From Candidatus Limnocylindria bacterium (GTDB taxonomy: Bacteria > Chloroflexota > Limnocylindria > QHBO01): a stretch of 64,000 nt of DNA. Position 1 is the stretch's first letter; each line of letters opens with the position of its first letter. The notes beneath the pieces are model-generated. The model saw nothing but the letters and a program-made list of their open reading frames with translations. It had not been told where the DNA came from and did not search any database. Below, piece by piece: positions 18,817 through 38,724 of the stretch. A program made the position numbers and the translations under genes. The stretch is from assembly GCA_038209995.1 (NCBI GenBank), contig JBBQXD010000002.1, positions 136,428 through 200,427 of the forward strand. Direction: 5' to 3'.

Positions 18817-19272
18817 ATGAATGGACGCCTGCTGCGCTCAAGGCGCGAACGGATGATCGGGGGCGTGGCCGGCGGCATCGGTCACCAGCTCGGTGTCGAC
18901 CCGACCTGGGTGCGCATCGCATGGGTCGTCCTCGCGATTGCCACCAACGGCGCCGCGATCCTGGTCTACCTGCTCCTCCTCTTCGTCATCCCCGAGGAGG
19001 GGACCGATGCAGCCGCGCCGACCGGGACCGGGACCGATGCCCGCGCGGACGTGCCGGTGGCAGGCAGGGGGCCGACGACGTCGCATCCGCAGCGCGGCTC
19101 ATTCGAAGCGGGGAACGGGGCCCTCATCGTCGGGGGGATCCTCGTCATCGTCGGGGCCTGGGCGCTCGCCTCCCAGTACGTTTCGAACATCCCGTGGGCG
19201 CGGATCTGGCCGATCGGCCTCCTCGTCGCGGGGCTGCTCATCGTGATCGCCTCCTTCACCCGCCGCCGCTGA
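18817..19272 (+). CDS. PspC-domain membrane protein
   Basis: 'RSRRERMIGGVAGGIGHQLGVDPTWVRIAWVVL' is the PspC N-terminal domain. C-terminal TM segments follow. Confidence 0.7.
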   Translation: MNGRLLRSRRERMIGGVAGGIGHQLGVDPTWVRIAWVVLAIATNGAAILVYLLLLFVIPEEGTDAAAPTGTGTDARADVPVAGRGPTTSHPQRGSFEAGNGALIVGGILVIVGAWALASQYVSNIPWARIWPIGLLVAGLLIVIASFTRRR

Positions 19273-22200
19273 GGCAGCGCGCCGCGCGCGCTGGATCTCC
19301 CACCGGTCGCGGCCGAGGAGCGCGAAGACCGCCGCGACGAACCCGACCGCGAGTCCCGCCACGAGCTTCGGCAGGTTGCCGCTGACGAGCTGCGTGCGAT
19401 CCCCGGAGGGAGGCGCCGGAAATTGGAATGCGTAGTTCCACGGCGGCAGGGCACGGGCGGCATTGATGTACCAGTCCGGCATCGCGAGCGCGGAGCCCAG
19501 CGGGAAGACGAGGATGCCGGCGACCGCCGCCAGGCTGAGGAACGCGACCCCGTACGGCCGCCAATCGGGCCGCACCAGGAGCTCGTCGACGGCGTAGGCG
19601 AGGGCCAACATTGCGAACAGCATGGCGGTGAAGTAGTGGTACATGAAGGTCGCGCGCTCGATCCGCGTCCACGGCAGGAACTGGAACGCGAAGGCGACGA
19701 CGACGAGCACGAGCGCCAGCGACCGCCGGCGCCAGGCCATGATCCCGGCGAAGACGAGGGCGGGGATGCCGGCCCAGAGGAGGATCGGGTTGCCGCCGTT
19801 GTAGATGGCGGCGGTGCTGCGGTCGTCGTAGCCGTGGCCGTAGAACCAGGTCGGCTTGAGGTCGAGCGGCCAGCTCCACCACGGTGAGCTCGAGGGGTGG
19901 CCGGCGGTCAGCCCGAAGTGGTAGCCGAACATCTGGGCGTGGAGCTCGTCGAGCGACCAGGCGTAGCCGGGCCCCACGTCGGGCGTCGCGATCGTGTGCC
20001 CCAGCGCCAGGTAGGGCACGTAGGTCAGGAAGTAGACGGTGAGCGGCAGGATGACGAGGCACGCCCCGATCCACGGCCAGGAGAAGCCGCCCAGCTCCTC
20101 CGGCGCCCACCAGCGGGCATCGTCGCGGGTGCGGAGCGACTTGACCGCGCGCGCGCCGACGAGCACGGCCGTCGCGCCGAGCATGATCCACGCCGGCCAT
20201 GCGGCCTGGGCGCCGCGGGAGAGGAACGCGAAGATCGTCTCGATCGCGTCCTTCGGCTGGCGGCCCGCCACCTGGCCGTATGCGAGCGCGAACGCCAGAC
20301 CGATGCCTCCCAGCACGAGCCCGGTGGCCGGCAGCGCCAGCAGCTCCTCGCCGCGCAGCCGGATCGGCCAGCGCCACACGATGAGGATGGCGATCGCGAA
20401 CGCGGCCGCGCACACGACGAGGACCGGCCACGGCGCGTCGATGCCCGCCACGATCAGCAGGAACCCGATCGCCCCCACCAGCAGCAGCCGTCCGAGCGGC
20501 GATCGCACGAGGACGAGGATGAGCAGCCCGGCGAGCGCGTAGAAGCCGACCCACTTGCTCGCTGCCGCCAGACCGATGAGGACCCCGGTGAGCGGCAGCG
20601 CCCACCACGCGCTGCCACGCCATCGGCCTGACCAGACCTGCCAGAAGAGCAGGTACGCGGCGATGATGAAGGTCGCCGTGAAGATGTCGTTCATCGCGAT
20701 CCGGCTCATGACGTAGCTCATGCCGTCGACCGCGACGAAGATTGCGGCGAGGACCGCGATCCGGCGGCGGCGGAACATCGTGGCCGCGAGCAGGTAGATG
20801 AGCCCGACCAGGATCGAGCCGAAGATGACGCCGGCCATCCGCCATGCCACCGCGTCGCCGCGCGTGTCGACGCTCACCAGCGCGCCCGCCGTTCCGCCCG
20901 CGGCCGGGGCGCTGACGACGAGGATCTGCGCGTTGTCGTCGCCGGTCCCGGTATCGACCGCGTCGACCGCGATCGCGAGCGACTCACCGGGGAGCGCCGT
21001 GCTGTCCCACGCCGCGAAGCCGGAGCGCAGCAGTCCCTGCCCGCCGGACTCGCCGTGCGGCTCCACCGCCCACACGACGGGCGCCCCGCCGTCATCGGTG
21101 ACGCCGGTGACGTAGATCATATTCACGACCGGCTCCCACGCGATCTGGCGCGGGGTGCCGGGGAGCGGCGTCGTGCCGATGAGCGTCAGCGTGTGCCCGT
21201 AGACGGCGATCCCGCCGCCCGTGGCCGGGAACGTGCCGGGATCGCCCGGCTGGGGGCCGACCGGCACCCAGACCTGCGCGTCGTTGCCGCTCCCCTGGAC
21301 GATGACCGGGCCGACGGGCGGCGCGCTGGCCTGGAGCGGCTCCTGGTTCTGCGCCGGCTCGAGGGTCGTCGCGTCCAGGACGTTCACCACCCCTCCGGCA
21401 GCGTCGGTGGAGAGGACGAGCGGCGCGGCCTGGTCAATCTTCGGGAGGTAGGCCAGGCCGCCACTGGCGAGCGTCGCAGTGGCGCTGATCACGGTGCCCG
21501 CCGGGTCGAGGCGCGCGATGCGGTCCGGCCCGCGGGCCAGGATCGCGGTCCCGTCGTCCGACACGACGATCTCGTTGACGCTCCCGAGGTCGGTCGCCCA
21601 CGCGACGCCGGCAGGCGGTGGCGCGCGGGGGCCGCTGCCGGGGAGGTAGGCGGCGAGGTCGTAGGCCTGCACCGTGCCGTCGTCGGCGCGGCCGGCGAGC
21701 AGGCGCTGCGCCGCGCCATCCCAGGCGAGCGACGCGATCGGGCCACCCGCGGACCATCGACTCAGCTCGCCGCCGTCGAGGGCATCGCGGCCGACGATCT
21801 GGCCGCTCTCGACGGTGAAGGCGACCGACCGCGGGTGCTGTTGGGAGTTGCGCGCCGGCGCCACCGCCAGCGCGCCACCGGCCGCGCCGAGCTCCGTCGT
21901 CGCGCGGACCTGGTTGGGATCCATGGCCACGATCCCCGCCGCGATGAGGTACTTGGCGAGCATCGGGTGCGTCCACTCGTACGTGTCCCGCGTCCACCCG
22001 TGCTCCCAGTCGGAGAGCCACTCCATGGCCGAGCGGGCGTGGTAGACCTCGTCGAAGTGGTAGCCCTGCGGCACGTCGAGGCGCCAGAGGCGGAAGAGGA
22101 GCCCGAGGCCGACGAGGCCCACGAGGAGGAGCGCGTCGAGCCGATCGAGCCGCCGGCCGCGCTCGCGGAACAGCGGGTCGTCCTCGCGCGACCGCTCCTC

Positions 22201-23949
22201 CACGGACGCCGGCTCGCGCGCGGGCACCCGGGGCACCGGCGGCATGACCATCGCGCCAGGCGAGACCCGCGGCCCATCCTCGGCGGCCCACGCCGGCTCG
22301 ACGGCCGGTGCCTCGCGCACCACGCGCCAGGCGAGCCAGCCGAACGCGACCACGACCACGATGCCCAGCAGGTAGAGCCCGGCATCGGTCCAGATGACGC
22401 CGTCGAAGAATGGCCCGAGGTCCATCGGTCCATCGCCGAAGCCGGGATTCATGGGTGGCAGGCCGGCGAACGTCCAGTCGGCGGTGTAGACCCACAGGAC
22501 GTTGGCGGTCAGCGACACGGTCACCAGGCCGTAGAGCGCCGCCCATCCGAAGCGCAGGAGGAGGGCCGCAGCTGCGATCGCCGCGAGGGGGAACAGGAGG
22601 AGGAACCAGGGGGGCCACGTCCCGTCGGACACGAGCTTGAACCCGGGGACCACGTCGAGGCCTATGGCGACGACTGCCGCCGCGCCGAACGCCATGAGCC
22701 TCCCCGACCGGCGCAGGCGCGGCACCGCCCGCAGGACGAGGGGCGCGGCCAGGCCGACCGCCGGGAAGAGGTACCGCTCGTGGACGCGCGTCGGCACCAC
22801 GAAGAAGGCGACCGCCACGAGGAGCGTGCCGATGACGAGCCCTTCCGGGTCGTCGTGGCGCCATACCTGCCACAGCGCGATCAGCGCCGCAACCGCAAAG
22901 AGCAGGGTGCCGAGGAGCTGCCACGAGACCCCGACGCCCGCGACCGCGATCGCGATCCCGGGGCCGCCACAGCCGAGGTCGGGCGCCACGGCCGGGACGT
23001 CGCAGCCCCACCGGAGGGTGTCGCCGAGGCCGCTCCAGGCATTTCGCCACAGGTTGATCGCGTTGATCGCCAGGCCCTCATAGGTCGTCGCCGCCTCGCC
23101 GAACTTGCCGATCAGGCTGGCGTTCGGATCGGACGAGGGTGACCACACCGACATGCCGAATGGGGCGAGGAGGAGGACGAGCGCGCCGATGCCGACCGCC
23201 ACCGATGTGAGCACCCGGAGCGGGTCGCGCCGCAGGTCCTGCCCTGGGTCGGCGGAGCGGCCGAGGAGGTGGCGCTTGATGCCGACGATCGCCACGATCG
23301 GGATCAGGAAGGCGTACTGGAACTTCACGAGCAGAGCGATCGTGGCGCCGAGCGCGGCGGCCTCGGTCCAGCCGGCCGCGAGCGCGTAGAGGGTGCCGAG
23401 GATGACGAGCGTGCCGACCGAGTCCACCTGGCCCCACACCGCGCTGTTGAAGACGGTGGCCGGGTTGAAGAGGTAGATCGCGGCCGCGACGAGGCCGACC
23501 GCCTCGCCCGACCAGCTCCGCCCTGCGAGCGTGAAGCGGCGGTCGAGGAAGCGCCGTCCGTAGGCGAAGAGCAGCCACGCGACGCCGGCGTCGGCCAGGA
23601 TGCCGGGGATCTTTATGAGGCCCGACGTCGCGTCCTGGCCCACGAGGGGAGCCAGGAGCTTGCCGATCAGGCCGAGGCCCCACAGGACGTAGAGGTAGCC
23701 GGGCGGATAATCACTGAAGTAGCCGGGTGCGTAGAATGCCCCGGGCCCGACACTCGCGAGTCGCTGTCCCCATGCGGAGAAATCGACGATGTCGATCCGG
23801 AACCCGCTCTTCGGCAGCAGGATGCCAGCGATGAGGGCACGCAGCAGCAGACCGATGAGGATGAGCACGCCGAGGAGCATGCCGGCGTCGAGGTGCAGGC
23901 CGTCAGCGAATGGCCTCGCGCCCCGCCGCCGCACGGGACGGGAGGTCAT
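19099..23949 (-). CDS. giant polytopic glycosyltransferase: N-terminal GT-C module fused to a PMT-like (GT39) protein O-mannosyltransferase module that carries a large periplasmic beta-propeller insertion and a PMT_4TMC C-terminus
   Basis: Single uninterrupted frame. Module A is polytopic with the acidic loop 'FRIDIVDF'. Module B starts with the PMT DE motif 'HFDEVYHARSAMEW'. It is followed by about 450 aa of repeat-like soluble sequence (WDGAAQRLLAG.., VVSDDGTAILARGPDRIARLDPAG.., IAVYGHTLTLIG.., VVWAVEPHG..). Then come multiple TMS (RMAGVIFGSILVGLIYLL...) and a C-terminal 'WTRIERATFMYHYFTAMLFAMLALAYAVDEL'. The start is ambiguous (ATG 23949 or 23880); the 3' tail overlaps convergent pspC by about 170 nt. 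Confidence 0.6.
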   Translation of the reverse strand: MTSRPVRRRGARPFADGLHLDAGMLLGVLILIGLLLRALIAGILLPKSGFRIDIVDFSAWGQRLASVGPGAFYAPGYFSDYPPGYLYVLWGLGLIGKLLAPLVGQDATSGLIKIPGILADAGVAWLLFAYGRRFLDRRFTLAGRSWSGEAVGLVAAAIYLFNPATVFNSAVWGQVDSVGTLVILGTLYALAAGWTEAAALGATIALLVKFQYAFLIPIVAIVGIKRHLLGRSADPGQDLRRDPLRVLTSVAVGIGALVLLLAPFGMSVWSPSSDPNASLIGKFGEAATTYEGLAINAINLWRNAWSGLGDTLRWGCDVPAVAPDLGCGGPGIAIAVAGVGVSWQLLGTLLFAVAALIALWQVWRHDDPEGLVIGTLLVAVAFFVVPTRVHERYLFPAVGLAAPLVLRAVPRLRRSGRLMAFGAAAVVAIGLDVVPGFKLVSDGTWPPWFLLLFPLAAIAAAALLLRFGWAALYGLVTVSLTANVLWVYTADWTFAGLPPMNPGFGDGPMDLGPFFDGVIWTDAGLYLLGIVVVVAFGWLAWRVVREAPAVEPAWAAEDGPRVSPGAMVMPPVPRVPAREPASVEERSREDDPLFRERGRRLDRLDALLLVGLVGLGLLFRLWRLDVPQGYHFDEVYHARSAMEWLSDWEHGWTRDTYEWTHPMLAKYLIAAGIVAMDPNQVRATTELGAAGGALAVAPARNSQQHPRSVAFTVESGQIVGRDALDGGELSRWSAGGPIASLAWDGAAQRLLAGRADDGTVQAYDLAAYLPGSGPRAPPPAGVAWATDLGSVNEIVVSDDGTAILARGPDRIARLDPAGTVISATATLASGGLAYLPKIDQAAPLVLSTDAAGGVVNVLDATTLEPAQNQEPLQASAPPVGPVIVQGSGNDAQVWVPVGPQPGDPGTFPATGGGIAVYGHTLTLIGTTPLPGTPRQIAWEPVVNMIYVTGVTDDGGAPVVWAVEPHGESGGQGLLRSGFAAWDSTALPGESLAIAVDAVDTGTGDDNAQILVVSAPAAGGTAGALVSVDTRGDAVAWRMAGVIFGSILVGLIYLLAATMFRRRRIAVLAAIFVAVDGMSYVMSRIAMNDIFTATFIIAAYLLFWQVWSGRWRGSAWWALPLTGVLIGLAAASKWVGFYALAGLLILVLVRSPLGRLLLVGAIGFLLIVAGIDAPWPVLVVCAAAFAIAILIVWRWPIRLRGEELLALPATGLVLGGIGLAFALAYGQVAGRQPKDAIETIFAFLSRGAQAAWPAWIMLGATAVLVGARAVKSLRTRDDARWWAPEELGGFSWPWIGACLVILPLTVYFLTYVPYLALGHTIATPDVGPGYAWSLDELHAQMFGYHFGLTAGHPSSSPWWSWPLDLKPTWFYGHGYDDRSTAAIYNGGNPILLWAGIPALVFAGIMAWRRRSLALVLVVVAFAFQFLPWTRIERATFMYHYFTAMLFAMLALAYAVDELLVRPDWRPYGVAFLSLAAVAGILVFPLGSALAMPDWYINAARALPPWNYAFQFPAPPSGDRTQLVSGNLPKLVAGLAVGFVAAVFALLGRDRWEIQRARRAASAAAGEGGDHDEQPRDEEADRPDPRPRDVRNVLGGERPGPDDDEDPPDDEGPVPRFE

Positions 23950-23964
23950 CGAAGGCGACGCCGG

Positions 23965-25650
23965 ATGCAGCGTCGCCGGGTCTGGCACGGCACGGCGGCG
24001 GTGAGTATACATCGACCCCCGGACGATCCCGATGGCCTCCCGGTTGCGTCGGGGGCCGCGGGCCGACCGCCCCGCCGTCTCCGCGCCGCGCATCCCACGA
24101 TCCCATATGTATCCGGCCCGGTCGCCTGGGCGGCGGCCTTCATCACGCTGGTGGCGTTCGGCATCTACCTCCGCACCCTGATGCCGGCGACCGGCTTCTG
24201 GGACACCGGCGAGGCGCAGACGGTGCCGCACACGCTCTCGATCTTCCACCCCACCGGCTTCCCGACCTATGCGCTCCTGGGATGGCTCTGGAGCCAGCTC
24301 CCGATCGGCGAGGTCGCATATCGCATGAACCTGCTGTCCGCCGTCTGCGTCGCGCTTGCCGCCGGCCTCACGGTGCTCATCACCGCCCACCTCCTGGAGG
24401 AGCGCAACCGCTGGGTCGCAGCGGTTGCCGGCGCAGTCGCGGGCGCCGCGTTCGCGTTCGCCAGCGAGGCCTGGGAGATCGCGCTGCGTGCCGACGTCCA
24501 CGCCGTCCACATCCTCATCGTCGCGCTCATCGTGTGGCTGCTCGTCACCTGGCGCGCCGCCGAACGCGCCGGGTCACCGCGGTGCGGGCGCTGGCTTGCC
24601 GCGGCGGCGCTCATGTTCGGGCTGGGGCTCGGGAACCATCCGCTCATCGGGCTGATGGCCTTCGCCATCGGCCCGTGGCTGTTCATCGTCGACCCCGGCA
24701 TCTGGCGCCGATGGCGACTGGTCGCCGCCTGTGCCGCGCTCCTGGTGCTGGGTCTGCTGGTCTACCTCTACATCCCGATTCGGGCCCATATCTCGCCCGA
24801 GCCTCCGCTCTTCTACGCCCACCCCAGGACGTGGGAGGGTTTCCGCTATCTCGTCTTCGCCGAGCAGTTCCACGGCCTCTTCGACCAGTTCGCCAGCCCC
24901 CTGCAGTACATCGATGCGAAGTGGGCGAAGGTGGAGAGCGTTCTCGCCGCCCAGCTCGTGGGACCCGGCTGGCTCGTCGTCGCGATGGGCGCCGCGAGCC
25001 TCGCGGTCCGTCGCCTCGGGGCGTTCGCGTTCCTCCTCCTGCTCATGGCCTCCAACATCTACTACGCCATGAACTTCCAGGACGGTGACATCGACCGCTA
25101 CTACCTCCTCAGCACGCTCGTCGCCTGCGTCCTCGTGGGCGTGGCGGTCGGGAGCCTCGCGGCGGCGGGCAGCCGCGCCATCGCCCAGGCGACTCGCCGC
25201 ACGCTCGACATCGCCGGCCGCCGCACGGTGGCGCGACTGGCGGGCGGGACGGTGCTCGTGCTCGGGGCGCTGCTGCCGGTCGTGGCGCTCACCACCCGGT
25301 ACGACGTGCGCGACCAGTCGCGGAACCACGAGGCCGACCTGTGGGTGGCGAGCGTCTATCGCGCGCTCCCCCAGGACGCGGTGATCATCAGCTGGTGGAG
25401 CTACAGCACGCCACTGTGGTACCACCGCTGGGTCCTCGGCGACCGGCCGGACATCACGATCATCGACGAGCGGAACATCCTCGACGACGGCTGGGGTACG
25501 ATCAATGCCGCCATTTACGCGTACCTGGGCCGGCGGCCGGTCTACCTGGTTCCGCCCGACTGGGAGGCGGCGAGGCTGCTGGCGGTCTTCCGCACGCGGC
25601 CCGTCGAGACGTACGGCGGCTACACGGAAATCGTCGAGGTGGTGCCCTGA
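23965..25650 (+). CDS. DUF2723/TMEM260-like GT-C family polytopic glycosyltransferase
   Basis: About 560 aa with 11 or more TMS and an N-terminal 'ATGFWDTGEAQTVPHTLSIFHPTGFPTYALLGW' block resembling the DUF2723 WDSGE motif. Large C-terminal soluble domain. Start ATG 23965 or GTG about 24001; only 15 bp from the divergent giant gene if both upstream-most starts are used. Confidence 0.55.
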   Translation: MQRRRVWHGTAAVSIHRPPDDPDGLPVASGAAGRPPRRLRAAHPTIPYVSGPVAWAAAFITLVAFGIYLRTLMPATGFWDTGEAQTVPHTLSIFHPTGFPTYALLGWLWSQLPIGEVAYRMNLLSAVCVALAAGLTVLITAHLLEERNRWVAAVAGAVAGAAFAFASEAWEIALRADVHAVHILIVALIVWLLVTWRAAERAGSPRCGRWLAAAALMFGLGLGNHPLIGLMAFAIGPWLFIVDPGIWRRWRLVAACAALLVLGLLVYLYIPIRAHISPEPPLFYAHPRTWEGFRYLVFAEQFHGLFDQFASPLQYIDAKWAKVESVLAAQLVGPGWLVVAMGAASLAVRRLGAFAFLLLLMASNIYYAMNFQDGDIDRYYLLSTLVACVLVGVAVGSLAAAGSRAIAQATRRTLDIAGRRTVARLAGGTVLVLGALLPVVALTTRYDVRDQSRNHEADLWVASVYRALPQDAVIISWWSYSTPLWYHRWVLGDRPDITIIDERNILDDGWGTINAAIYAYLGRRPVYLVPPDWEAARLLAVFRTRPVETYGGYTEIVEVVP

Positions 25651-26426
25651 ATCAAGAGCCCAGCGGAGAAGCGCGCGAGGCCGAACGTCCCCAGCTCACG
25701 TTCTTCTTCCCCGCCTTCAATGAGGAGGAGAACGTGGAGCGCACCGTCGAGCGGGCGCTGGCCGACATCGGTCCGCTCGTCGGCTCGATGGAGATCGTCA
25801 TCGTCGACGACGGCTCGACCGATCGCACGCCCAAGCTCGCTGACGCGCTGGCCGCCGCCCATCCGGAGGTGCGTGTCGTCCACCAGGAGAACCGCGGCTA
25901 CGGCGGCGCCTTGCGCACCGGCTTCGCCAATTCCCGAGGCCAGCTCATCTCGTTCTCCGACGGCGACCTCCAGTTCGACCTGACCGAGATGGGGCGCCTC
26001 CTCGCCCGCCTCGATGATCCGGCGAAGAAGCCGGTGGACGTCGTCATCGGCTACCGGATCAAGCGTCGCGACCCGGCGCATCGGATCTTCATTGCCAAGA
26101 CGTACAACGCAATCGTGTCGGTCCTCTTCGGCCTCCGAGTCCGCGACATCGACTGCGCGATGAAGCTTTTGCGCCGGGAGGTGTTCGACGGGCTGCGCCT
26201 GGATGCCGACTCGCCGTTCCTCTCCGCCGAGCTGCTCATCAAGCTCCGCGCGCGCGGCGAGCGGATCGCGCAGGTTGGGGTCAACCACTTTCCGCGGACC
26301 GCGGGGACGAACACCGGCGCCTCGTTCCGCAAGATCCTCCGCACGTTCCGGGACATTGGGAAGCTGCGCCTGGCGCTCTGGTTCCACCGGGGTGAGGTGC
26401 TCGGCCCCCGCCGGTCTCGCGGCTAG
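25647..26426 (+). CDS. GT2 polyprenol-phosphate mannose synthase (Ppm1/DPM1)-like; no canonical in-frame start codon near the conserved N-terminus
   Basis: 'LTFFFPAFNEEENVERTV', 'IVIVDDGSTDRT', 'SFSDGDLQFD' and 'IDCAMKLLRREV' are GT2 DPM1-like motifs. The only in-frame ATG/GTG/TTG upstream of the FFFPAFNEE block lies more than 300 nt inside the preceding gene; a CTG at 25647 is the nearest candidate. Confidence 0.55.
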   Translation: MNQEPSGEAREAERPQLTFFFPAFNEEENVERTVERALADIGPLVGSMEIVIVDDGSTDRTPKLADALAAAHPEVRVVHQENRGYGGALRTGFANSRGQLISFSDGDLQFDLTEMGRLLARLDDPAKKPVDVVIGYRIKRRDPAHRIFIAKTYNAIVSVLFGLRVRDIDCAMKLLRREVFDGLRLDADSPFLSAELLIKLRARGERIAQVGVNHFPRTAGTNTGASFRKILRTFRDIGKLRLALWFHRGEVLGPRRSRG

Positions 26427-26568
26427 GCCGGCTCATCTGGCGTTCAGTCCCCGATCGTGACAGCGTGCATCACGTCGGCACGTGCGTCTCGTGCGTCACG
26501 ACGGACCTCCCACGCCCCGCGCCGTCACCCGCCAACGACCCGCACCGCCCACGGGCGCGTGACCGGCC

Positions 26569-27123
26569 CTACGGCTCGTCGGGCGGCGGCCCCGTGTCGC
26601 CCGCGTCGGTGTCGACGTCGAGCGAGTTGATGAACTCGCGAAAGACCGCGAGCTTCTCGTCCTCGGGGCCGGTCTCGCCCTCCTCGAGATGATCCGGCTC
26701 CACGCCGGCCTCGTCGAGGACCCGCTCGTCGACGTAGATTGGCGAGCCGGTGCGGACCGCCACCGCGATCGCGTCGCTCGTCCGCGAGTCGACCTCCGCC
26801 TCCTCGCCGTCTGCGTTCTCCAGGTAGAGGCGGGCATGGAAGGTGCCCTCGTTCACGTGGGTGATGACGATGCGGCTGATGCTCGAATGCAGCGTGGCGA
26901 CCACGCTCACCAGCAGGTCATGGGTGAGCGGCCGCTCGGCGGAGAGGCCCTGGAGGCGCATCGCAATCGCGTTCGCCTCGGCCGGCCCGATCCAGATCGG
27001 CAGGTAGCGGTCCCGCTCATTGTCCTTGAGGATGACCACGTGCTGGCTCGAGAGCATGTGGACGCGGACGCTCTCCACGACCATCTCGATGAGGCGCACG
27101 CGACCATACGGCCCTTCGCCCAT
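26569..27123 (-). CDS. bifunctional nuclease (BFN/DUF151) family protein
   Basis: 'VVILKDNERDRYLPIWIGPAEANAIAMRLQGLSAERPLTHDLL' ... 'VITHVNEGTFHARLYL' matches the BFN-domain pattern. Acidic C-terminal tail. Confidence 0.6.
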   Translation of the reverse strand: MGEGPYGRVRLIEMVVESVRVHMLSSQHVVILKDNERDRYLPIWIGPAEANAIAMRLQGLSAERPLTHDLLVSVVATLHSSISRIVITHVNEGTFHARLYLENADGEEAEVDSRTSDAIAVAVRTGSPIYVDERVLDEAGVEPDHLEEGETGPEDEKLAVFREFINSLDVDTDAGDTGPPPDEP

Positions 27124-27141
27124 GGCCCGATTCTAGCCCGG

Positions 27142-29364
27142 CTACTCGAGGACGACGCGCACCACCCGGTCCGGGGTGGCGAGGAAGGCGACCGGTGGGC
27201 CGTCGGCGACCGAGGCCACCCGCAGGCCGATGACCTCGTCGAGTAGCCCAGCCTGCGCACCGCGGCGGGGTGCCATCCACTGGCCGACGAACGCGCCGTC
27301 CGCGCGTTGGAAGCCGATGATCCGCGCATTCGCCGCGTCGTAGACGAAGAAGAGCTCGCGCTCGCCAATGGTGGCCGCGTCAAAGAGGCGGTAGTCGAGC
27401 GCGTCGCGGACCTTGGCGTCCGGCGGCGGATCGAGGGAGAAATCGGTCTGCGGCAGCGGCGTGCCGAAGTTCACACGCGTCACCGTATTGCTCTGGAGGA
27501 GCCACAGGTTGGCGTCGACGAGGAGGTCGCGGGCGCGCTGCGGCGGGATGTCCGGCTCGGCGGTGAGGAAGGGTTGCGGGGCAGTCGGGAAGGTGACCGG
27601 GATGACCGCGGGCGGTGACCACTTGTCGATCGTGCCGCGCGCCGCATCCACGAGATACAGGTTGAAGATCTGGAGCGGCGGCCGGTGCTGGAGGGCGGCG
27701 AGCAGCCTGCTCTCGGGCGCCACCGCGTCGATGCCGGCGAGCGGCATGCGGTGCGGGGTCAGCTCGCTGAGGTCGATCCGCCACGCCTGCCGCGAGCGAT
27801 CCACCACCACGACGTCGGTGGCCGCGGTCGCGATGAGCCACGGGTCGCCCGCCACCCCGCCGCTGAGCTGCTGCCCGGCCCGGTAAACGACCGTCGCCGA
27901 CCCATCCGCGGGGTCGACGCGGATCACGCGACCGCGCCCGGCATCGGTGAGCCACAGCGCCCCATCGGAGGAGGCGACCATGCGGGATGCGCGCACGCCG
28001 TCGAGGGTGGCGCCGAGATCGGCGACGATCGCGATGTCACGGATCCGCGACACGCGGTAGAGCGCATCGAGGCCGGCATCGACACGCGCGCGGAGCGGCT
28101 CGAGCTCGCTGTCGGCCACGCCGGCGCCGGCGGCCAGCTCGACGGCGCGGAAGGCCTCGTCGAGCCGCGCCTTCGCCTGCTCCGGCGCGCGGGCGACGAG
28201 ATCGCGGCCGTCGACCTGGTCCTCGACCTGGGCGATCAGGTCGTGGGCGCTGGTGATCGCCGCGCGGGCCACCTGGGCGCGCGGGATCGCGTCGGTCGGC
28301 GTCGCCGACGGCAGCGAGCCGACCATGATCCCGGCCGCCGCGATGCCGGCCACCACGACCATCCACGCCAGGCCGAGGCGCCGCCGTCTACCCGACTCCC
28401 GCTCATCGGTCCGCGACACGGTGCGCGGGTACGCAGGCCGGCGTCGCGGCACGAAGGCGAGCAGGACGTTGACCAGTCGGAGGAGTCCGCGGCCGCCCGC
28501 GGCCTGGAGCGCGTCGATCCCCGATCCGGCGCGATGGAGGAGCCGCCCGATGGCATCGGCGAGAGGGACCGGGCTCTCGTCTGGCAGGCCGGCGAGGGGC
28601 TCGGCCGGTCGCACCGGCTCGAGCTGCCGCGTCGTGGTGGTGGCGCTGATCTCGTCCACCTCGAGGACGAGCAGGCCGTCCGACCCACTTCCCCCGCGGA
28701 TCGCGAACAGCTGCTGGAGGTGCTCGGCGGCGGCCGACGGGCGCATCGCATCGAGCGCGTGCTGCAGCTGGTCGATCCCCACCACATGGGCGAGGTTGCG
28801 GCTGACGAGCGCGATGCGGTCGTTGGCGGCCAGCTCACCCTGCCATGTGTACGGGTCGACCTGGAGCGCCTCGCCGAGGGTGCCTGCCACGCGCCGCTTC
28901 CGGACGCGCGGATCCTCGTCGGCGACCGCAGGCGGCGGAGGGAGCTCGTACATCCGACCGCCGCGCACGACGACCGCGCTCGCCGGCCCGAGCTTCGCCA
29001 CGTGGAGCTCGCGGCCCCGAATCGCCACCGCCACCACCCCGATTCCGCCGCGCTTTCCGATCCCGAATTGGCGCCGGTGGTGGTAGAGGCGCCGGTTCGC
29101 GGCCTCGATCGCCTTCGCGAGCGCGCCGAGCGCGCCGACCGACAGGTCGTAGTAATAGTCGCGCTCGATCTCGTCGAGCGCCTCGATGGCCGCGCGGCCG
29201 AGCGAGGCATCGGTCCCGCTCACCTGGGCGAGGAGGAAGAGCGACCCCTTGGTCCGCGCCCGCGCCCCAACCGTCGGCTCGTGGAAGCGGGCGATGTCGA
29301 GCGCCCCGGCAGCGCGTTCCTCGGCTGGGGGCAGACCGATACGAGTGGCGAGGCGAGAGGACAT
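27142..29364 (-). CDS. membrane protein with N-terminal PP2C-like domain carrying degenerate metal-binding motifs (pseudo-phosphatase?) and a large extracytoplasmic C-terminal domain
   Basis: PP2C-like topology blocks: 'IGVVAVAIRGRELHVAKLGPASAVVVRGG' (GDSR position reads GPAS) and 'NDRIALVSRNL' (SDGL position reads SRNL). A single TMS (LAWMVVVAGIAAAGIMVG) follows, then about 400 aa with beta-strand-rich repeats. Confidence 0.5.
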   Translation of the reverse strand: MSSRLATRIGLPPAEERAAGALDIARFHEPTVGARARTKGSLFLLAQVSGTDASLGRAAIEALDEIERDYYYDLSVGALGALAKAIEAANRRLYHHRRQFGIGKRGGIGVVAVAIRGRELHVAKLGPASAVVVRGGRMYELPPPPAVADEDPRVRKRRVAGTLGEALQVDPYTWQGELAANDRIALVSRNLAHVVGIDQLQHALDAMRPSAAAEHLQQLFAIRGGSGSDGLLVLEVDEISATTTTRQLEPVRPAEPLAGLPDESPVPLADAIGRLLHRAGSGIDALQAAGGRGLLRLVNVLLAFVPRRRPAYPRTVSRTDERESGRRRRLGLAWMVVVAGIAAAGIMVGSLPSATPTDAIPRAQVARAAITSAHDLIAQVEDQVDGRDLVARAPEQAKARLDEAFRAVELAAGAGVADSELEPLRARVDAGLDALYRVSRIRDIAIVADLGATLDGVRASRMVASSDGALWLTDAGRGRVIRVDPADGSATVVYRAGQQLSGGVAGDPWLIATAATDVVVVDRSRQAWRIDLSELTPHRMPLAGIDAVAPESRLLAALQHRPPLQIFNLYLVDAARGTIDKWSPPAVIPVTFPTAPQPFLTAEPDIPPQRARDLLVDANLWLLQSNTVTRVNFGTPLPQTDFSLDPPPDAKVRDALDYRLFDAATIGERELFFVYDAANARIIGFQRADGAFVGQWMAPRRGAQAGLLDEVIGLRVASVADGPPVAFLATPDRVVRVVLE

Positions 29365-29423: not shown

Positions 29424-29756
29424 TCACTCCCAGCGACCCACCGAAACGGCCACCCCGCGCAACTCGATGGTCGCCCCCGGACGACCCGCCATGCGGCGGT
29501 TCACCGCCCACGCCAGGGCCTCGCCCCGCATCCGGAGCTCGGAGGCGAGGATCGGCTCGGAGGCCTCGATCTGCGCGATCCCGCTCGCGACCTTCACCAC
29601 CCGGCTGCGCATGCCGCCGCGCGCGAGACCCGCCTCCTCGACGACCTCCTCCCATGCCAGGCGCGCCTGGGCCTGGGCGATCTCCGCCGCGGCGCCGGGA
29701 CCGATGCAGGCCAGCAGCGCGCGCTGCAGGGCGGCGCCGGACTCCTCGCCCGACAC
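29424..29756 (-). CDS. DUF721 domain protein (DciA-like), recF-associated
   Basis: 110 aa, GTG start 2 nt after the recF stop. Pattern 'RVVKVASGIAQIEASEPILASELRMRGEALAWAVNRR...ATIELRGVAVSV' matches DUF721. Position after recF is conserved. Confidence 0.6.
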   Translation of the reverse strand: MSGEESGAALQRALLACIGPGAAAEIAQAQARLAWEEVVEEAGLARGGMRSRVVKVASGIAQIEASEPILASELRMRGEALAWAVNRRMAGRPGATIELRGVAVSVGRWE

Positions 29757-29758
29757 CG

Positions 29759-30928
29759 TCAGGCGACCCGCGGCGCGAGCGAGAGCCGCCCGTCATCCAC
29801 GTGCCAGATCGGCACCCGCGCCCGCCTGGCCGGCGGCAGCGCCTCCGGATCAGCGGTCGTGACCAGCACCTGCCCGCGCTCTCCGAGCAGTGCCAGCGCC
29901 CGCTCCGATCGCTCCGGGTCGAGCTCACTGAACAGGTCGTCGAGGAGGACGATGGGCCGCGAGCCGTCGACACCCAACAGGTCGGTCTCCGCGAGCTTGA
30001 GGGCGAGGATGATCGTCCGCTGCTGGCCACGGCTGGCGTGCTCGGCGACGCCGCGTCCGCCGAGCTCGACGACGAGGTCGTCGCGCTGCGGGCCGACGAG
30101 CGAGACCCCGTTCCAGAGCTCCTTCTGGCGCACGTCCGCCAGCCGGCGCCGATAGGCGGCCTCCAGGGTCGTCACGTCATGCGCCCCGTCGGAGCGGCCC
30201 TGCCAGGCGTCCTTGAGCGAGTCGGCGTAGGCCACCCGTACCGTGTCGGCGCGCTCGTCGGCCGGGGCGACCGCATCGTGGAGCGGCCCGATGCGCGCCG
30301 CGAGCTCCCCGACCAGCGCCAGGCGCGCCGCGGTGACCCGGGCGCCGATGGTGACGAGCTCTTCGTCCCAGAACGGCATCCCGTCGGCGCCGGCCTCCTC
30401 GCGCCGGATCGCGCGGAGCAGCGCGTTGCGCTGGGCGAGCACGCGGGCGAGGTCGACGAGGTCGCGCGCCACGCGGCGGTCACGCTGGGCAAGGATGGCG
30501 TCGAGGAAGCGGCGACGCTCCCCCGGCGATCCGACGAGAAGGAGCATCTCCTCGGGGCGGAACAGGACGGCGCGCACGACCTCGCCGATCGACGTCGATC
30601 GCCGCGCCAGGCCGTTGACGGTCATCCGCTTGCGCAGGCCGACCGGCGGGTCCGCTCCCGGAAGGACCGCCTCGACCCGTGCCCCATCACCACCGTCCGG
30701 GTCGGCCAGGTCGAGCCGGATGCGGGCGAATGGCGAGCCGTGCTGGACCAGCTCGCTCTCGACCGCCGCGCGTGCGGAGCGGCCGGTGATCGCCACCACG
30801 ATCGCCTCGAGGAGGTTCGTCTTGCCTGCCCCGTTCGGCCCGGCGACGATCGTCAGGCCGGGCTCGAGATGGAGCTCCGCGCTCTCATAGCTGCGGAAGT
30901 GGTCGAGCGTCAGGCGGGCCAGGCGCAT
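29759..30928 (-). CDS. recF: DNA replication and repair protein RecF
   Basis: 'MRLARLTLDHFRSYESAELHLEPGLTIVAGPNGAGKTNLLEAI' Walker A and SMC-like signature. 389 aa. Confidence 0.9.
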   Translation of the reverse strand: MRLARLTLDHFRSYESAELHLEPGLTIVAGPNGAGKTNLLEAIVVAITGRSARAAVESELVQHGSPFARIRLDLADPDGGDGARVEAVLPGADPPVGLRKRMTVNGLARRSTSIGEVVRAVLFRPEEMLLLVGSPGERRRFLDAILAQRDRRVARDLVDLARVLAQRNALLRAIRREEAGADGMPFWDEELVTIGARVTAARLALVGELAARIGPLHDAVAPADERADTVRVAYADSLKDAWQGRSDGAHDVTTLEAAYRRRLADVRQKELWNGVSLVGPQRDDLVVELGGRGVAEHASRGQQRTIILALKLAETDLLGVDGSRPIVLLDDLFSELDPERSERALALLGERGQVLVTTADPEALPPARRARVPIWHVDDGRLSLAPRVA

Positions 30929-30962
30929 CGGTCAGGCCCTCATCGGTGCGGCCGGCGCTGCG

Positions 30963-32093
30963 TCAGGACGCGGTGCGGACCGGCATGATGACGTGGACGT
31001 AGTCGTCCTTGCCGATGCCGCGGATGACGCCCGGTGCGAGTGGGCCGGAGAGCTCGAGCGCCGCCTCGTCCGAGCCGAGGTTGCTCAGCACGTCGATCAG
31101 GTAGCGTGCGTTGAAGGCGATGGTGGTGGGAGATCCCTCGACCGTGGCATCGAGCGCGTCGGCCGCGTCACCGATGTCGGCCGCGTGCGCCGAGATCGAC
31201 ACCGCCGAGGCATCCTCCTCCTCGCTGCCCACCGCGATCTTCACGATGTTCGCGCTGTCGCGGGCGAAGATGCTCGCCCGTCGCGCGCCGGCCAGGAAGG
31301 CCTCGCGGTCGATGATCGCCCGGGAGGTGTGCGCCGTCGGGATGACCGGCTCGTAGTTCGGGAACTGGCCCTCGATGAGGCGGCTGACGAGGTCGATCCC
31401 CTCGGTGTGGAAGAGGACCTGGCTCTTGTTCGGGGTGACGGTGATCTCGACCGCCGCATCGCCGTCGGGCAGGATCCGCATGAGCTCGCCGTACGAGCGG
31501 CCCGGGACCACGATGAGCACCTCGCCGCTCACCGGCGAGGCGAGCTCCAGGTGACGCACCGCGATCCGATAGTTGTCCGCGGCGGCGAGCGTCATCCGGC
31601 TGCCGGCGAGCCGGGTCAGGACACCGGTCAGGATGGGTCGGCTCTCGTCGGTCGCGGCTGCGAAGACCACCTCCCCCAGGGCCTCGCGGAGCGCCCGCGC
31701 GTCGACGGTCGTGGCCGGCGCGTCACCGATCGCCGCGACGACCGGAAACTCGTCGGCCTCGATGCCCTTGATCGAGCTCCTGTTGCCGGCGCAGCTGACC
31801 TTCAGGGTGCGGTCCTTCGGGGAGAGGACGAGGTCGATCCGCTGGTTCGGGAAGCTGCCAACGAGATCGGAGAGCAGCTTGGCCGGGACGGTGATCTCAC
31901 CCTCCTCGCTCACCTTGCCGGGCACCCAGCAGTTGATACCGATCTCGAGGTTCGTGGCGGTCAGCTTCAGGCCGGCGTCCTGGGTGCGGAGGAGGACGTT
32001 CGCCAGCACGGGCAGCGTGGCCCGGCTGCTCACCGCGCGGCTCACGATTCCGAGCCCGCGCGCCAGGTTCTCCTGCATCACCGAGACGTTCAT
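30963..32093 (-). CDS. dnaN: DNA polymerase III beta subunit (sliding clamp)
   Basis: Internal start 'MNVSVMQENLARGLGIVSRAVSSRATLPVLANVLL' is the typical DnaN N-terminus. 377 aa. The ORF-track extension to 32369 is rejected. Confidence 0.85.
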   Translation of the reverse strand: MNVSVMQENLARGLGIVSRAVSSRATLPVLANVLLRTQDAGLKLTATNLEIGINCWVPGKVSEEGEITVPAKLLSDLVGSFPNQRIDLVLSPKDRTLKVSCAGNRSSIKGIEADEFPVVAAIGDAPATTVDARALREALGEVVFAAATDESRPILTGVLTRLAGSRMTLAAADNYRIAVRHLELASPVSGEVLIVVPGRSYGELMRILPDGDAAVEITVTPNKSQVLFHTEGIDLVSRLIEGQFPNYEPVIPTAHTSRAIIDREAFLAGARRASIFARDSANIVKIAVGSEEEDASAVSISAHAADIGDAADALDATVEGSPTTIAFNARYLIDVLSNLGSDEAALELSGPLAPGVIRGIGKDDYVHVIMPVRTAS

Positions 32094-32466
32094 GCCGGTC
32101 CAGCGACCTCCTGCTCGGACGCAGCGCAGATCCACATCCACCGGCTGCGCGATACGACGACGAATGGTTCTCTCGAAGAATACTTCCAATCCGTCGTCGT
32201 CCCTAGTAGGGGTGTGGACGGCGTGGACATCTGCTCGATTCGTGCCCGGAACGACCCGTGGCGCGCGGTGGTCCGGTGGTCGACGAGGCGGTTGGATGGA
32301 GTGGGAAAGCGGGCTCCCGTGGTGGACGAGGGCTCCGTGCCGAAACCGTTGTGCGGCGTATTTCTCCACACGCAGCCGAGGATATCCACGAGAAGGTCGG
32401 AGTTATCCACCTCGACCGAGCCGGAGGTACCACCGGGCGCCCATGTCGCGTGCCGGCGGCGGTCCG
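32094..32466. other. candidate oriC: dnaA-dnaN intergenic region with clustered DnaA-box-like 9-mers and an AT-rich stretch
   Basis: Same-orientation boxes TTCTCCACA (about 32363), ATATCCACG (about 32382) and TTATCCACC (about 32402). Further box-like 9-mers in both orientations: GATCCACAT/CATCCACC (about 32130) and TGTGGACGG/CGTGGACAT (about 32214, 32222). AT-rich 'gaatggttctctcgaagaatacttccaatcc' (about 32160..32192) is a possible DNA unwinding element. Confidence 0.5.
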
Positions 32467-33807
32467 TCATTCGGAGTAGATCATCTCCCGCACCGCGTTG
32501 ATCTCACGGCGCATCTCGTCGTTCTCGCCGAGCTCGCGCGCGATCTTGTCGTAGGCGTGGAGCACCGTCGAGTGGTCGCGGCCGCCGAGCTCGGCGCCGA
32601 TGCGGAGAAGGCTGATGTCGGTCTCCTCCCGCATGAGGTACATCGCGATCTGGCGCGGCACGACGATCGCGCGGTCGCGCTTGCTGCTGCGCAGCAGGTC
32701 GAGGTTCACCCCGTAGTAGTCGGCCACGGCGCGCACGATGCGCTGCGGCGTGATCGACCGCTTCTTCGGGTTGTACATGACGTTCGACAGCACGGCCGAT
32801 GCGAGCTCGATGCTGATCGGCATGCCGGACATGCTCGCGTAGGCGATCACGCGGTTCAGGGCGCCCTCGAGCTCGCGGACGTTGCTCACCACCTTGCGTG
32901 CGATGAAGTCGATGACGTCGGGCGGGATGAGGTCGAGCTGATCCTCGGCCTTGCTGCGCAGGATGGCGATCCGCGTCTCGAGGTCCGGCGGCGTGAGGTC
33001 GGCGATGAGGCCCCACTCGAACCGGCTGCGGAGACGCTCCTCCAGGGTGGTGATCGCCTTGGGCGGACGATCCGAGGAGAGCACGATCTGCTTGCCGGCC
33101 TCGTGGATCGCGTTGAAGGTATGGAAGAACTCCTCTTGGGTCCGCTCACGCTCGGCGATGAACTGGATGTCGTCGATCAGGAGGACATCGATGCGGCGGT
33201 ATCGGTTCCGGAAGTCTTCCATCTTCTGCTCCCGGATCGAGTTGATGAAGTCATTCGTGAACTTCTCGCTCGATGCGTAGAGGACGCGCTTGCGGGGGAA
33301 CTTGGTCGCCACCGCGTTGCCGATGGCGTGCATGAGGTGCGTCTTGCCGAGGCCGACCCCGCCATAGAGGAAGAGCGGGTTGTACGCGTGTCCGGGCCGC
33401 TCCGCGACCGAGAGCGCGGCGGCGTGCGCGAGCCGGTTGGCCGATCCGACGATGAAGTTGGAAAAGACGTAGCGCCCGTTGAGGTTCAGGGCATTGCCGC
33501 CCGCCGAGAGTGGCGGCAGCTGGAGCGTCTCCTCGGAGGCCTGGTCGGGCAGCGGCCCCGGCGCGTCGGCCACCACGAATTCGACCTGGACCGATCCGCC
33601 GACGACGCGAGCCAGCGTCTGGCTGATGAGGGTGCGGTATCGGTTGTCGAGCCAGTCCCGTGCGAAGCCGTTCGGCGCGGCGATGCGGAAGCGGTTGTCG
33701 TCGATCTCGACGAGCTGCGTGTCCTTCAGCCAGGTCTCGAAGTTCGCCGGCGAGAGGCTGACCTCCAGCTCGCCCAACACGGCGCGCCAGACCTGCTTCG
33801 CATCCAT
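32467..33807 (-). CDS. dnaA: chromosomal replication initiator DnaA
   Basis: Start [10 protein letters not shown]; AAA+ Walker A '[11 protein letters not shown]', box VII, and C-terminal DNA-binding HTH '[13 protein letters not shown]...STVLHA'. 446 aa. Confidence 0.9.
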
Positions 33808-34002
33808 CAACAGCCGTCTCCACACGCCCGCAGCGCGGGCCTCGAAAGGGTCGAATAGCCACTCCGCGGGAGCGGACGGAAGGGTGTCGAGAGGGCTTCC
33901 GGTCCGCGGGGTCGCGGTAGTGTAGCAGCCCGGTTTCGGCCCGGGCAATGGAATCGTACGACACGGACGCGACCGACTCGCGCCAATCGTCTCGATCCCC
34001 GT

Positions 34003-34031
34003 TTGACCCCTGTCGGCAGGCTCCGTACAAT
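34003..34031 (+). promoter_or_regulatory. near-consensus sigma70 promoter for rpmH operon (-35 TTGACC, 17-nt spacer, -10 TACAAT)
   Basis: TTGACC at 34003..34008 and TACAAT at 34026..34031, about 125 nt upstream of the rpmH ATG. Confidence 0.45.
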
Positions 34032-34157
34032 CCGCGAGGAACCGCACCACGGCCACGGTGGGCGCTGCCCGCCGGCTGGCTCGGCCAGCCGCTCGCATCT
34101 TGCTGCAGCGCGATGCGCACCGCCTGACCAGCTCGTAACGAGGACGATCACGGACCC

Positions 34158-38359: not shown

Positions 38360-38724
38360 TGGTGGAGATGGGGGAGAATCGAACTCCCCGTCCAGAACCT
38401 AGTCGCCGGAAACTTCCTACAAGCGTTTCCGGCTTACTTGCATTTCGCGTCGCGGGCCCCCAACCGGCGGGGTGCCTCACTGGCTATCCGGTTGGCCTTG
38501 TGAGCCTCTTTGACGTCGCTCACCGGAGTCGGCGACGCCGCACCTCCCCTGATGACATCTTCGCCGTCCGGGGAGGGGAGACGGCGTCGATGTTCACTGC
38601 CTAAGCAGCGAAGGCGTAGCTGGGCTTGTTGCCAGTTACTTTTGGTGCCCTCTTTTTACGAGGCCTGAGGGCGCCTCGGCTTGCGATTCCCGGTCCCTGA
38701 GCCCTGTCGAAACCTGACATCCCC
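38360..38724 (-). ncRNA. ssrA: tmRNA (transfer-messenger RNA)
   Basis: The minus-strand 5' end 'GGGGATGTCAGGTTTCGACAGGGC...' and 3' end '...GGACGGGGAGTTCGATTCTCCCCCATCTCCACCA' are a canonical tRNA-like domain with encoded CCA. Internal ORF 'GGC AAC AAG CCC AGC TAC GCC TTC GCT GCT TAG' gives tag GNKPSYAFAA. Located next to smpB. Confidence 0.8.

Follow-up and report, generated by a model that had tools for sequence, protein, structure and literature searches.

The subject of this analysis is a set of glycosyltransferase genes in a 64,000-nucleotide stretch of a Candidatus Limnocylindria genome assembly (GCA_038209995.1, contig JBBQXD010000002.1, positions 136,428 to 200,427), hereafter called the window. 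The window is 70% G+C, and its closest relatives are metagenome-assembled genomes of Candidatus Limnocylindria (Chloroflexota). At this locus, a DUF2723/TMEM260-like GT-C gene is followed on the same strand by a gene for a glycosyltransferase of family GT2, and both are arranged divergently from a gene for a giant GT-C protein. The GT2 gene lacks a canonical start codon (ATG, GTG, or TTG), as do its counterparts in the clade to which the window belongs, a group of soil Chloroflexota. The three genes and the features of the DUF2723-GT2 junction are as follows.

19099..23949, minus strand: main open reading frame (ORF) of the giant double GT-C protein, 1,616 aa (Pfam PF06728, PF02366, and PF16192)
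24001..25650, plus strand: DUF2723/TMEM260-like GT-C gene, 549 aa from GTG 24001 (PF11028, E = 1e-31)
25603..25647, plus strand: last 15 codons of DUF2723, the putative GT2 translation-initiation region, without synonymous change in the clade
25636..25641, plus strand: Shine-Dalgarno (SD)-like GAGGTG, 5 nt 5′ of the CTG and invariant in the clade
25647..25649, plus strand: CTG proposed as the GT2 start from the clade comparison, overlapping the DUF2723 stop as CTGA
25647..26426, plus strand: GT2 polyprenyl-phosphate glycosyltransferase, corrected 259-aa model (PF00535, AlphaFold2, Foldseek)
25677..25679, plus strand: position of the former GTG start, now GAG (AAG in variant L163), from the junction alignment and a neighbor-joining tree

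The GT2 frame is −1 relative to DUF2723, whose stop is TGA 25648-25650, and it ends at TAG 26424-26426. An in-frame start scan located canonical triplets upstream at GTG 25341, 25395, and 25416; ATG, GTG, and TTG are absent from 25419 to 25733, and the next is GTG 25734, which lies 3′ of the conserved FFFPAFNEEEN block. An initial annotation of this DNA, made from the sequence by a model, had stated that no canonical codon separates the DUF2723 stop from the first conserved block, and this proved correct. It was also right that CTG 25647 is in the GT2 frame, where it shares its TG with the DUF2723 stop to form CTGA. Its statement that the sole canonical start lies more than 300 nt inside DUF2723 must be amended, since there are three such GTGs and the nearest (25416) is 232 nt inside. 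On composition alone, a start-free stretch of 17 to 105 codons has a probability of about 0.3 to 0.8 in a frame of this type. What is odd about GT2 is biological rather than statistical: a strongly selected gene has no canonical start throughout its clade.

Public protein databases hold the GT2 proteins of this clade in shortened form. The window's own GT2 (P0001) is recorded there as 230 aa beginning at GTG 25734, and all public calls for proteins that are 92 to 94% identical to it are 230, 226, 215, or 212 aa long. Relatives at 80 to 89% identity are 248 to 259 aa long, with an N terminus that reads M/V-T-D. The public calls for the clade (NCBI, JGI, ENA, and Logan) are all short by 29 to 47 residues. 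A cluster look-up of the public GT2 protein returned neither a name nor an accession.

The protein itself has a PF00535 domain (E = 2e-29) and carries the motifs LTFFFPAFNEEENVE, DDGSTDRT, and DGDLQFD, as first noted. Its sequence matches in the PDB are ArnC (7e-17), PfDPMS (1e-11), and GtrB (6e-10). In an AlphaFold2 model of the 259-aa protein (pLDDT of 82), residues 1-10 are disordered, β1 comprises residues 17-22, and α1 comprises residues 30-44. The best Foldseek match is PfDPMS (5mlz, TMq 0.71), followed by ArnC and GtrB, with E values of 1e-11 to 3e-13. Residues 17-28 (LTFFFPAFNEEE) align to ArnC VSVVIPVYNEQE at the start of the fold, and within them PAFNEE (residues 22-27) aligns with PVYNEQ of ArnC. 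A protein that started at residue 30 (GTG 25734) would therefore lack β1 and the β1-α1 loop. In the corresponding loop of PfDPMS, Tyr10 binds the donor ribose and Glu12 locks the acceptor loop; DGDLQF of GT2 corresponds to DADLQH of the same enzyme (PMC5526996).

At its C terminus, the model has helices at residues 227-246 and 248-252, and the ArnC alignment extends to residue 236; these helices may correspond to the amphipathic interface helices with which enzymes of this class contact the membrane and the acceptor. No transmembrane segments were called in GT2 (maximum Kyte-Doolittle 19-residue mean of 1.46), and actinobacterial Ppm1 likewise has no transmembrane helices. The NCBIfam matches, which were to transferases of hexose, Ara4FN, and GalNAc, all scored far under the family cut-offs. 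As judged by sequence and predicted fold, GT2 is a polyprenyl-phosphate glycosyltransferase of the DPMS/ArnC/GtrB class. The Ppm1 and mannose labels that it was first given hold only at the level of this class, the best matches being PfDPMS, ArnC, and GtrB. Its pairing with PMT-type and TMEM260-type GT-C genes is only suggestive as a pointer to a mannose donor.

Exact-protein look-ups of the truncated calls supplied DNA for the clade in all but two cases, and L001 was added from the genome collection. These sources yielded seven distinct variants (L001, L161/162, L163-165, L166/170, L167, L168/169, and the window), which come from separate JGI, ENA, NCBI, and Logan assemblies. The closest outgroup is a sister clade (L002-L006) with a GT2 identity of 85 to 88%. 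A metagenome scan with GT2 as the query returned only relatives of at most 84% identity and no clade members.

The junction is identical in all seven variants. DUF2723 ends in GAG GTG CTG CCC TGA, and a CTG in the GT2 frame lies exactly 54 nt 5′ of the first Phe codon. In none of the seven is there a canonical start in the GT2 frame closer than 285 nt upstream. Moreover, L001, L166/170, and L168/169 have ATG, GTG, or TTG nowhere in the open frame (in-frame stops at −249, −213, and −141), and the upstream GTGs of the window are thereby ruled out as a conserved start. Within the clade, the pairwise ratio of nonsynonymous to synonymous divergence (dN/dS) for GT2 is 0.05 to 0.09 at a dS of 0.33 to 0.57. 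By this measure the gene is under strong purifying selection, and this selection has persisted over the considerable divergence that followed loss of the start.

A canonical start is missing in 11 of 155 analyzable related loci, and all 11 belong to the window's clade. Because the start-less sequences form a single clade nested among the GTG-start group in a neighbor-joining tree, the GTG start was lost once. The locus is thus a case of clade-wide loss of the canonical start in a functional gene.

Junctions outside the clade were also compared. DUF2723 precedes GT2 in approximately 50 of 80 genome loci, and the usual junction is a 4-nt overlap (ATGA, GTGA, or TTGA) from which the GT2 N terminus reads M-T-D/E. 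In the sister clade, DUF2723 also ends in CTG CCC TGA, followed by a spacer of 9 to 25 nt with GGAG and then by the GT2 start, GTG ACC GAY CGN CCC, eight codons 5′ of LTFFFP. The in-frame TGA of that spacer reads GGA in the window's clade, where the spacer is also one base longer; this extra base brings the CTG of CTGA into the GT2 frame. All clade variants have a spacer of 53 nt, and in the five sister-clade members it is 52, 52, 52, 37, and 58 nt.

CTG 25647 is the only near-cognate codon common to all seven variants, as ACG and AAG are lineage specific, and it occupies the overlap position where orthologues have ATG, GTG, or TTG. The junction has both a 4-nt overlap (CTGA 25647-25650) and, within the upstream gene, an SD-like motif (GAGGTG 25636-25641). 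It has no canonical codon in that overlap: the seven clade variants all have CTG, and the first base is A, G, or T outside the clade. The sister clade carries a synonymous sequence, GAGGTC or GAAGTC, in place of GAGGTG.

The DNA just upstream of the CTG is unusually constrained. Among six clade lineages, only 1 of the 15 third positions in 25603-25647 is variable, through a non-synonymous change; the value ranks lowest among 353 fifteen-codon segments, for which the median is 7. The same 15 codons have 6, 10, and 7 variable third positions in three similarly diverged control groups with canonical NTGA starts, and 7 of 15 in the sister clade. Because synonymous sites are frozen in the window's clade alone, there appears to be extra nucleotide-level constraint 5′ of the CTG only where the start codon is weak. 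Since RNAfold gave z = 0.6 for 25580-25720, no RNA structure was accepted at the junction. No other CTGA junction without a canonical start was found in the window, and the matches at other loci proved spurious, arising antisense to a convergent gene.

From these comparisons, we consider that GT2 is most likely translated by CUG initiation, probably coupled to termination of DUF2723, with a probability of roughly 0.65. The ancestral GTG start would have mutated to GAG in one Limnocylindria clade, and initiation would have moved 10 codons upstream to CUG 25647, which overlaps the UGA of DUF2723. GAGGUG, located 5 nt 5′ of the CUG, would position the ribosome. Initiation would then be either by the ribosome that had finished DUF2723, re-initiating at the CUG, or by a newly bound 30S subunit. 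The initiator tRNA would decode CUG as fMet, and the product would be a 259-aa enzyme with a short disordered tail followed by strand β1. We infer that CUG 25647 is the codon actually used, that GT2 initiation depends on translation of DUF2723, and that the resulting level of GT2 expression is low. The initial annotation had listed a CTG start, reinitiation or coupling, and a recent pseudogene as options; comparison favors CTG with coupling or reinitiation and refutes the pseudogene.

Several observations weigh against initiation at this codon. First, the C of the CTG doubles as the third base of the DUF2723 Pro codon CCC, and the sister clade has the same base without using it in a start; conservation of that base is therefore uninformative. 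Second, the 10 new codons of the 17-codon extension give no frame-specific signal in third-position G+C content, and the enrichment of their substitutions at third positions is weak (7 of 14). Third, no change of CCC to CCG, CCA, or CCT has been fixed, although each of these synonymous changes would create a canonical start. GAGGTG is a perfect six-base match to the canonical anti-SD, a consensus that may differ from the lineage's own 16S. Finally, CUG is a poor start in E. coli, supporting initiation there at 1 to 2% of the AUG level, and annotations occasionally use it for a start (bioRxiv 10.1101/063800). Initiation at CTG 25647 is nonetheless favored, and it is comparative evidence that favors it.

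An unlikely alternative, yet the best of those that compete with CUG 25647, is that GT2 starts at another non-canonical codon in 25650-25700, either GAG 25677 (AAG in L163) or ACG 25698. In the window, GGAG at 25665-25668 precedes GAG 25677 by 8 nt, as it does the GTG start of the sister clade. However, the same GGAG lies 18 nt away in other clade members, such that the SD spacing is inconsistent. GAG also shares only its last base with AUG, is not among the known start codons, and varies within the clade. The ACG is at 25698 only in the window and is found elsewhere in L001.

A slightly smaller chance attaches to a DUF2723-GT2 fusion, in which a ribosome paused at CCC UGA would slip by −1 (CCC to GCC) and read the CUG as Leu. 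The product would be a two-domain protein with the junction peptide VEVVPLNQEPSG, resembling the fused Ppm1 of Mycobacterium tuberculosis. GT2 does lie in the −1 frame with CUG as the next codon after such a slip, and, having no membrane segment, it needs a partner in the membrane. A stimulatory element could be provided by the 45 frozen nucleotides upstream. A fuller version of this proposal, marginally less probable again, treats CTGA as a −1 read-through site with the frozen 45 nt as stimulator and has the fusion couple synthesis of the lipid-linked donor to the GT-C protein that uses it. However, no slippery heptamer (X XXY YYZ) is found in the last 28 codons of DUF2723, and the base 5′ of CCC is G in all members, so that re-pairing would be mismatched at the first codon position. 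Furthermore, the RNAfold result for the junction gives no sign of a stable structure, and in each of the 65 orthologous loci with DUF2723 the two proteins are separate and have starts of their own. Slippage by +1 at CCC_U was also considered and rejected, as it yields the wrong frame.

It is very unlikely that the annotated model is right and that a shortened, possibly non-functional protein starts at GTG 25734 or later, even though every public call for the clade begins at that position or downstream of it. GTG 25734 is not conserved, being GTC in L166/170 and L167. The 12 codons 5′ of it, FFFPAFNEEENV, have 0, 1, and 4 variable sites at first, second, and third codon positions, respectively, and thus vary almost solely at third positions. 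Such a protein would have lost β1 and the donor-binding loop, and the low dN/dS of GT2 speaks against loss of function.

A long N-terminal extension from GTG 25341, 25395, or 25416, overlapping DUF2723, is highly improbable. Such GTGs exist in the window, and some relatives have them at −306 and −285. However, the three variants noted above have no canonical codon between their upstream stops and GT2, and the stretch follows the codon usage of DUF2723 rather than one of its own. We dismiss both an error in sequencing or assembly and a recent pseudogene: the frame relation does depend on a single-base indel when compared with the sister clade, but the same junction recurs in seven variants from four assembly sources, and purifying selection has been strong since the start was lost. 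In sum, the outcomes named at the outset as able to overturn the observation did not materialize: a canonical start had not been overlooked, the sequence was not in error, and none of the 65 DUF2723-containing loci had a fusion.

The DUF2723 gene matches PF11028 with 110.6 bits against a cut-off of 24.2. Its protein has approximately 11 hydrophobic segments with the FWDTGE motif (24196-24213) after the first of them, in keeping with the polytopic, divergently transcribed TMEM260-like protein initially described. GTG 24001 is present in 65 of 65 DUF2723-containing loci, where it opens an ORF of at least 440 aa, and in 16 of 56 loci without DUF2723. The start adopted at first, ATG 23965, is not conserved and is missing in close relatives. 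Because the GTG is retained in every DUF2723-containing locus, the protein most likely starts there (VSIHR...). A scan of 23500-27200 for sigma-70 promoters and terminators gave nothing useful, and no promoter for a DUF2723-GT2 operon was found. A plus-strand GGAC-N18-GTT was rejected as a DUF2723 promoter, as transcription would begin downstream of the conserved GTG 24001.

The giant protein begins with a PIG-U-like GT-C module, continues with a large central non-membrane region, and ends with PMT and PMT_4TMC domains. It has approximately 25 hydrophobic segments and a weak NCBIfam match to protein O-mannosyltransferase. In nearly all loci, homology of its orthologues as detected by tblastn begins at ATG 23949, the second Met. 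A giant GT-C homologue adjoins GT2 divergently in all 113 loci with enough sequence, and DUF2723 lies between the two in 63 of these and is absent from 50. Because the pairing is universal while DUF2723 occurs in about half of the loci, the conserved core is the giant GT-C gene plus GT2. This pairing fits a predicted unit of donor synthase and transferase. The initial annotation had proposed that the three genes form a mannosylation module; synteny supports the unit, whereas the Ppm1 and mannose part of the proposal stands only at class level, with NCBIfam scores far below the cut-offs. In the 50 loci without DUF2723 (L009, L012, L013, L023, L024, and others), GT2 is 90 to 190 nt from the conserved element AGTATACAT described below and is directly divergent from the giant gene.

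The region between the divergent starts of the giant gene and DUF2723 has conserved features of its own.

23950..24012, minus strand: 21-codon leader of the giant gene, apparently translated, from ATG 24012..24010 (ATG TAT ACT, MYTH...) and in frame with the main ORF here
23954..23977, minus strand (RNA): GC-rich hairpin of 6 to 8 bp, GGCGACGC, loop, GCGUCGCC, ending 4 nt before the main ATG
24001..24012, no strand assigned: 12-mer GTGAGTATACAT, the overlap of the divergent starts GTG 24001 (plus) and ATG 24012 (minus), with the invariant core AGTATACAT
24022..24047, minus strand: candidate extracytoplasmic function (ECF)-sigma-like promoter of the giant gene, with GCAAC (24047..24043), a 17-nt spacer, CGTC (24025..24022), and 9 nt to ATG 24012

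The core AGTATACAT recurs at 122 related loci, whether or not they carry DUF2723, and is AT-rich within a 70% GC genome. The main ATG of the giant gene (23949 in the window) lies 60 to 66 nt downstream of the conserved upstream ATG. In 56 of 81 distinct sequences, the upstream ATG shares the frame of the main ORF; in 21 it opens an ORF that meets the main ATG in an ATGA overlap, and in 2 the overlap is 1 nt. Where the overlap is ATGA, the leader is a separate upstream ORF of 20 to 22 codons whose TGA overlaps the main ATG. The third possible frame relation occurs in 0 of the 81. Because it never occurs, the leader seems to be translated and to feed into the main ORF.

RNAalifold returned an empty consensus structure for this region on both strands, and so the hairpin was assessed by explicit pair counting. 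By this measure, pairing is found in 81.5% of cells versus 25 to 42% in slid controls. Its G·U pairs fit the minus strand only, and some of the changes are compensatory. An Rfam E-value scan of 23800-24200 gave nothing credible.

Of 115 distinct sequences, 97 contain the promoter-like pattern G[CGA]AAC-N17-CGTC-N9-11-ATG, and shuffles average 0.6. Among the 97 matches, the spacer is 17 nt in 95 and CGTC is present in all, while the sequence of the spacer is variable. The predicted transcript start would be at or beside ATG 24012, which would make the mRNA leaderless or nearly so. No sigma-factor family was found among the only 13 window proteins scanned against Pfam, all of which are encoded within approximately 10 kb on either side.

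The genes of the wider neighborhood are unremarkable: a PspC-domain protein, an ABC transporter, and GNAT acetyltransferases flank the locus on one side, and a BFN nuclease, a 740-aa protein, recF, dnaN, and dnaA lie on the other. The BFN-domain nuclease gene (26569-27123) adjoins the gene for the conserved 740-aa protein (27142-29364, minus strand), which has no Pfam match, and this pair is also found 3′ of GT2 in related clade loci. Because dnaA, dnaN, and recF cluster with a small ORF at 29424-34098 (minus strand), the GT2 locus is about 3 to 8 kb from the probable replication origin region. In the dnaN and dnaA ORFs, the first canonical starts lie approximately 90 to 100 codons 5′ of the Pfam domains, and the true starts are probably further downstream. 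A transfer-messenger RNA (tmRNA) gene with the tag peptide GNKPSYAFAA lies at 38360-38724 (minus strand); it was the sole ARAGORN match in the window and the sole Rfam match in a gathering-threshold scan of the whole window.

The GT2 start finding is real and largely explained, and the CUG at the stop/start overlap is most probably the replacement. It corrects a systematic annotation error, because the public GT2 calls of the clade miss the first β-strand and the donor-binding loop. Although non-canonical starts and translational coupling are each already known, this is a natural case, repeated across lineages, of a lost canonical start whose role has apparently passed to a CUG at the stop/start overlap. 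The arrangement has lasted through a dS of about 0.5, with extra constraint on the upstream initiation region. It therefore offers a usable test case for how weak starts are tolerated or compensated at coupled gene junctions. The analysis also defines a conserved Limnocylindria glycosylation unit with a giant double GT-C protein, a donor-synthase-like GT2, DUF2723 in approximately half of the loci, and a candidate ECF-type promoter.

Several parts of this unit can be set against known systems. ECF sigma promoters have AAC in the −35 element and CGT or CGTC in the −10 element, separated by 14 to 17 bp (PMC5758882), and the candidate motif of the giant gene, recognized from its sequence alone, matches this AAC/CGT signature. 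The DUF2723 protein resembles human TMEM260, a protein O-mannosyltransferase (PMC10214176), in having the Pfam TMEM260-like N-terminal GT-C module, a polytopic topology, and an acidic first-loop motif, FWDTGE. It differs in being a bacterial homologue whose activity is predicted from the family match.

GT2 shares with PfDPMS (5mlz), ArnC (9bhc), and GtrB (5ekp) the GT-A fold, PxxNE after β1, and the D-x-D-L-Q motif. Its sequence identity to these proteins is only 22 to 26%, and any sugar or nucleotide specificity assigned to it is putative. In contrast to Ppm1, for which the membrane partner is Ppm2, the candidate partner of GT2 is the DUF2723 GT-C protein or the giant GT-C protein.

Overlapping ATGA gene pairs undergo termination-reinitiation coupling that is usually helped by an SD sequence inside the upstream gene (Huber et al. 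2019, PMC6728339). The DUF2723-GT2 junction is like these pairs in its 4-nt stop/start overlap and in the SD-like motif at the 3′ end of the upstream gene, and orthologues of the pair themselves use ATGA, GTGA, or TTGA. It differs in that coupling here is predicted and the overlapping codon is CTG, which is outside the three canonical starts.

The AUU of E. coli infC is the classical non-canonical start. In E. coli, CUG, AUU, AUC, and AUA are functional at 1 to 2% of the AUG level (bioRxiv 10.1101/063800). The proposed GT2 start is like other non-canonical bacterial starts in being a near-cognate codon with one mismatch to AUG in a gene under purifying selection, although no autoregulatory role is known for it. 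The GT2 codon would have arisen when a GTG was lost and initiation moved to the stop overlap, and it has persisted through a dS of about 0.5.

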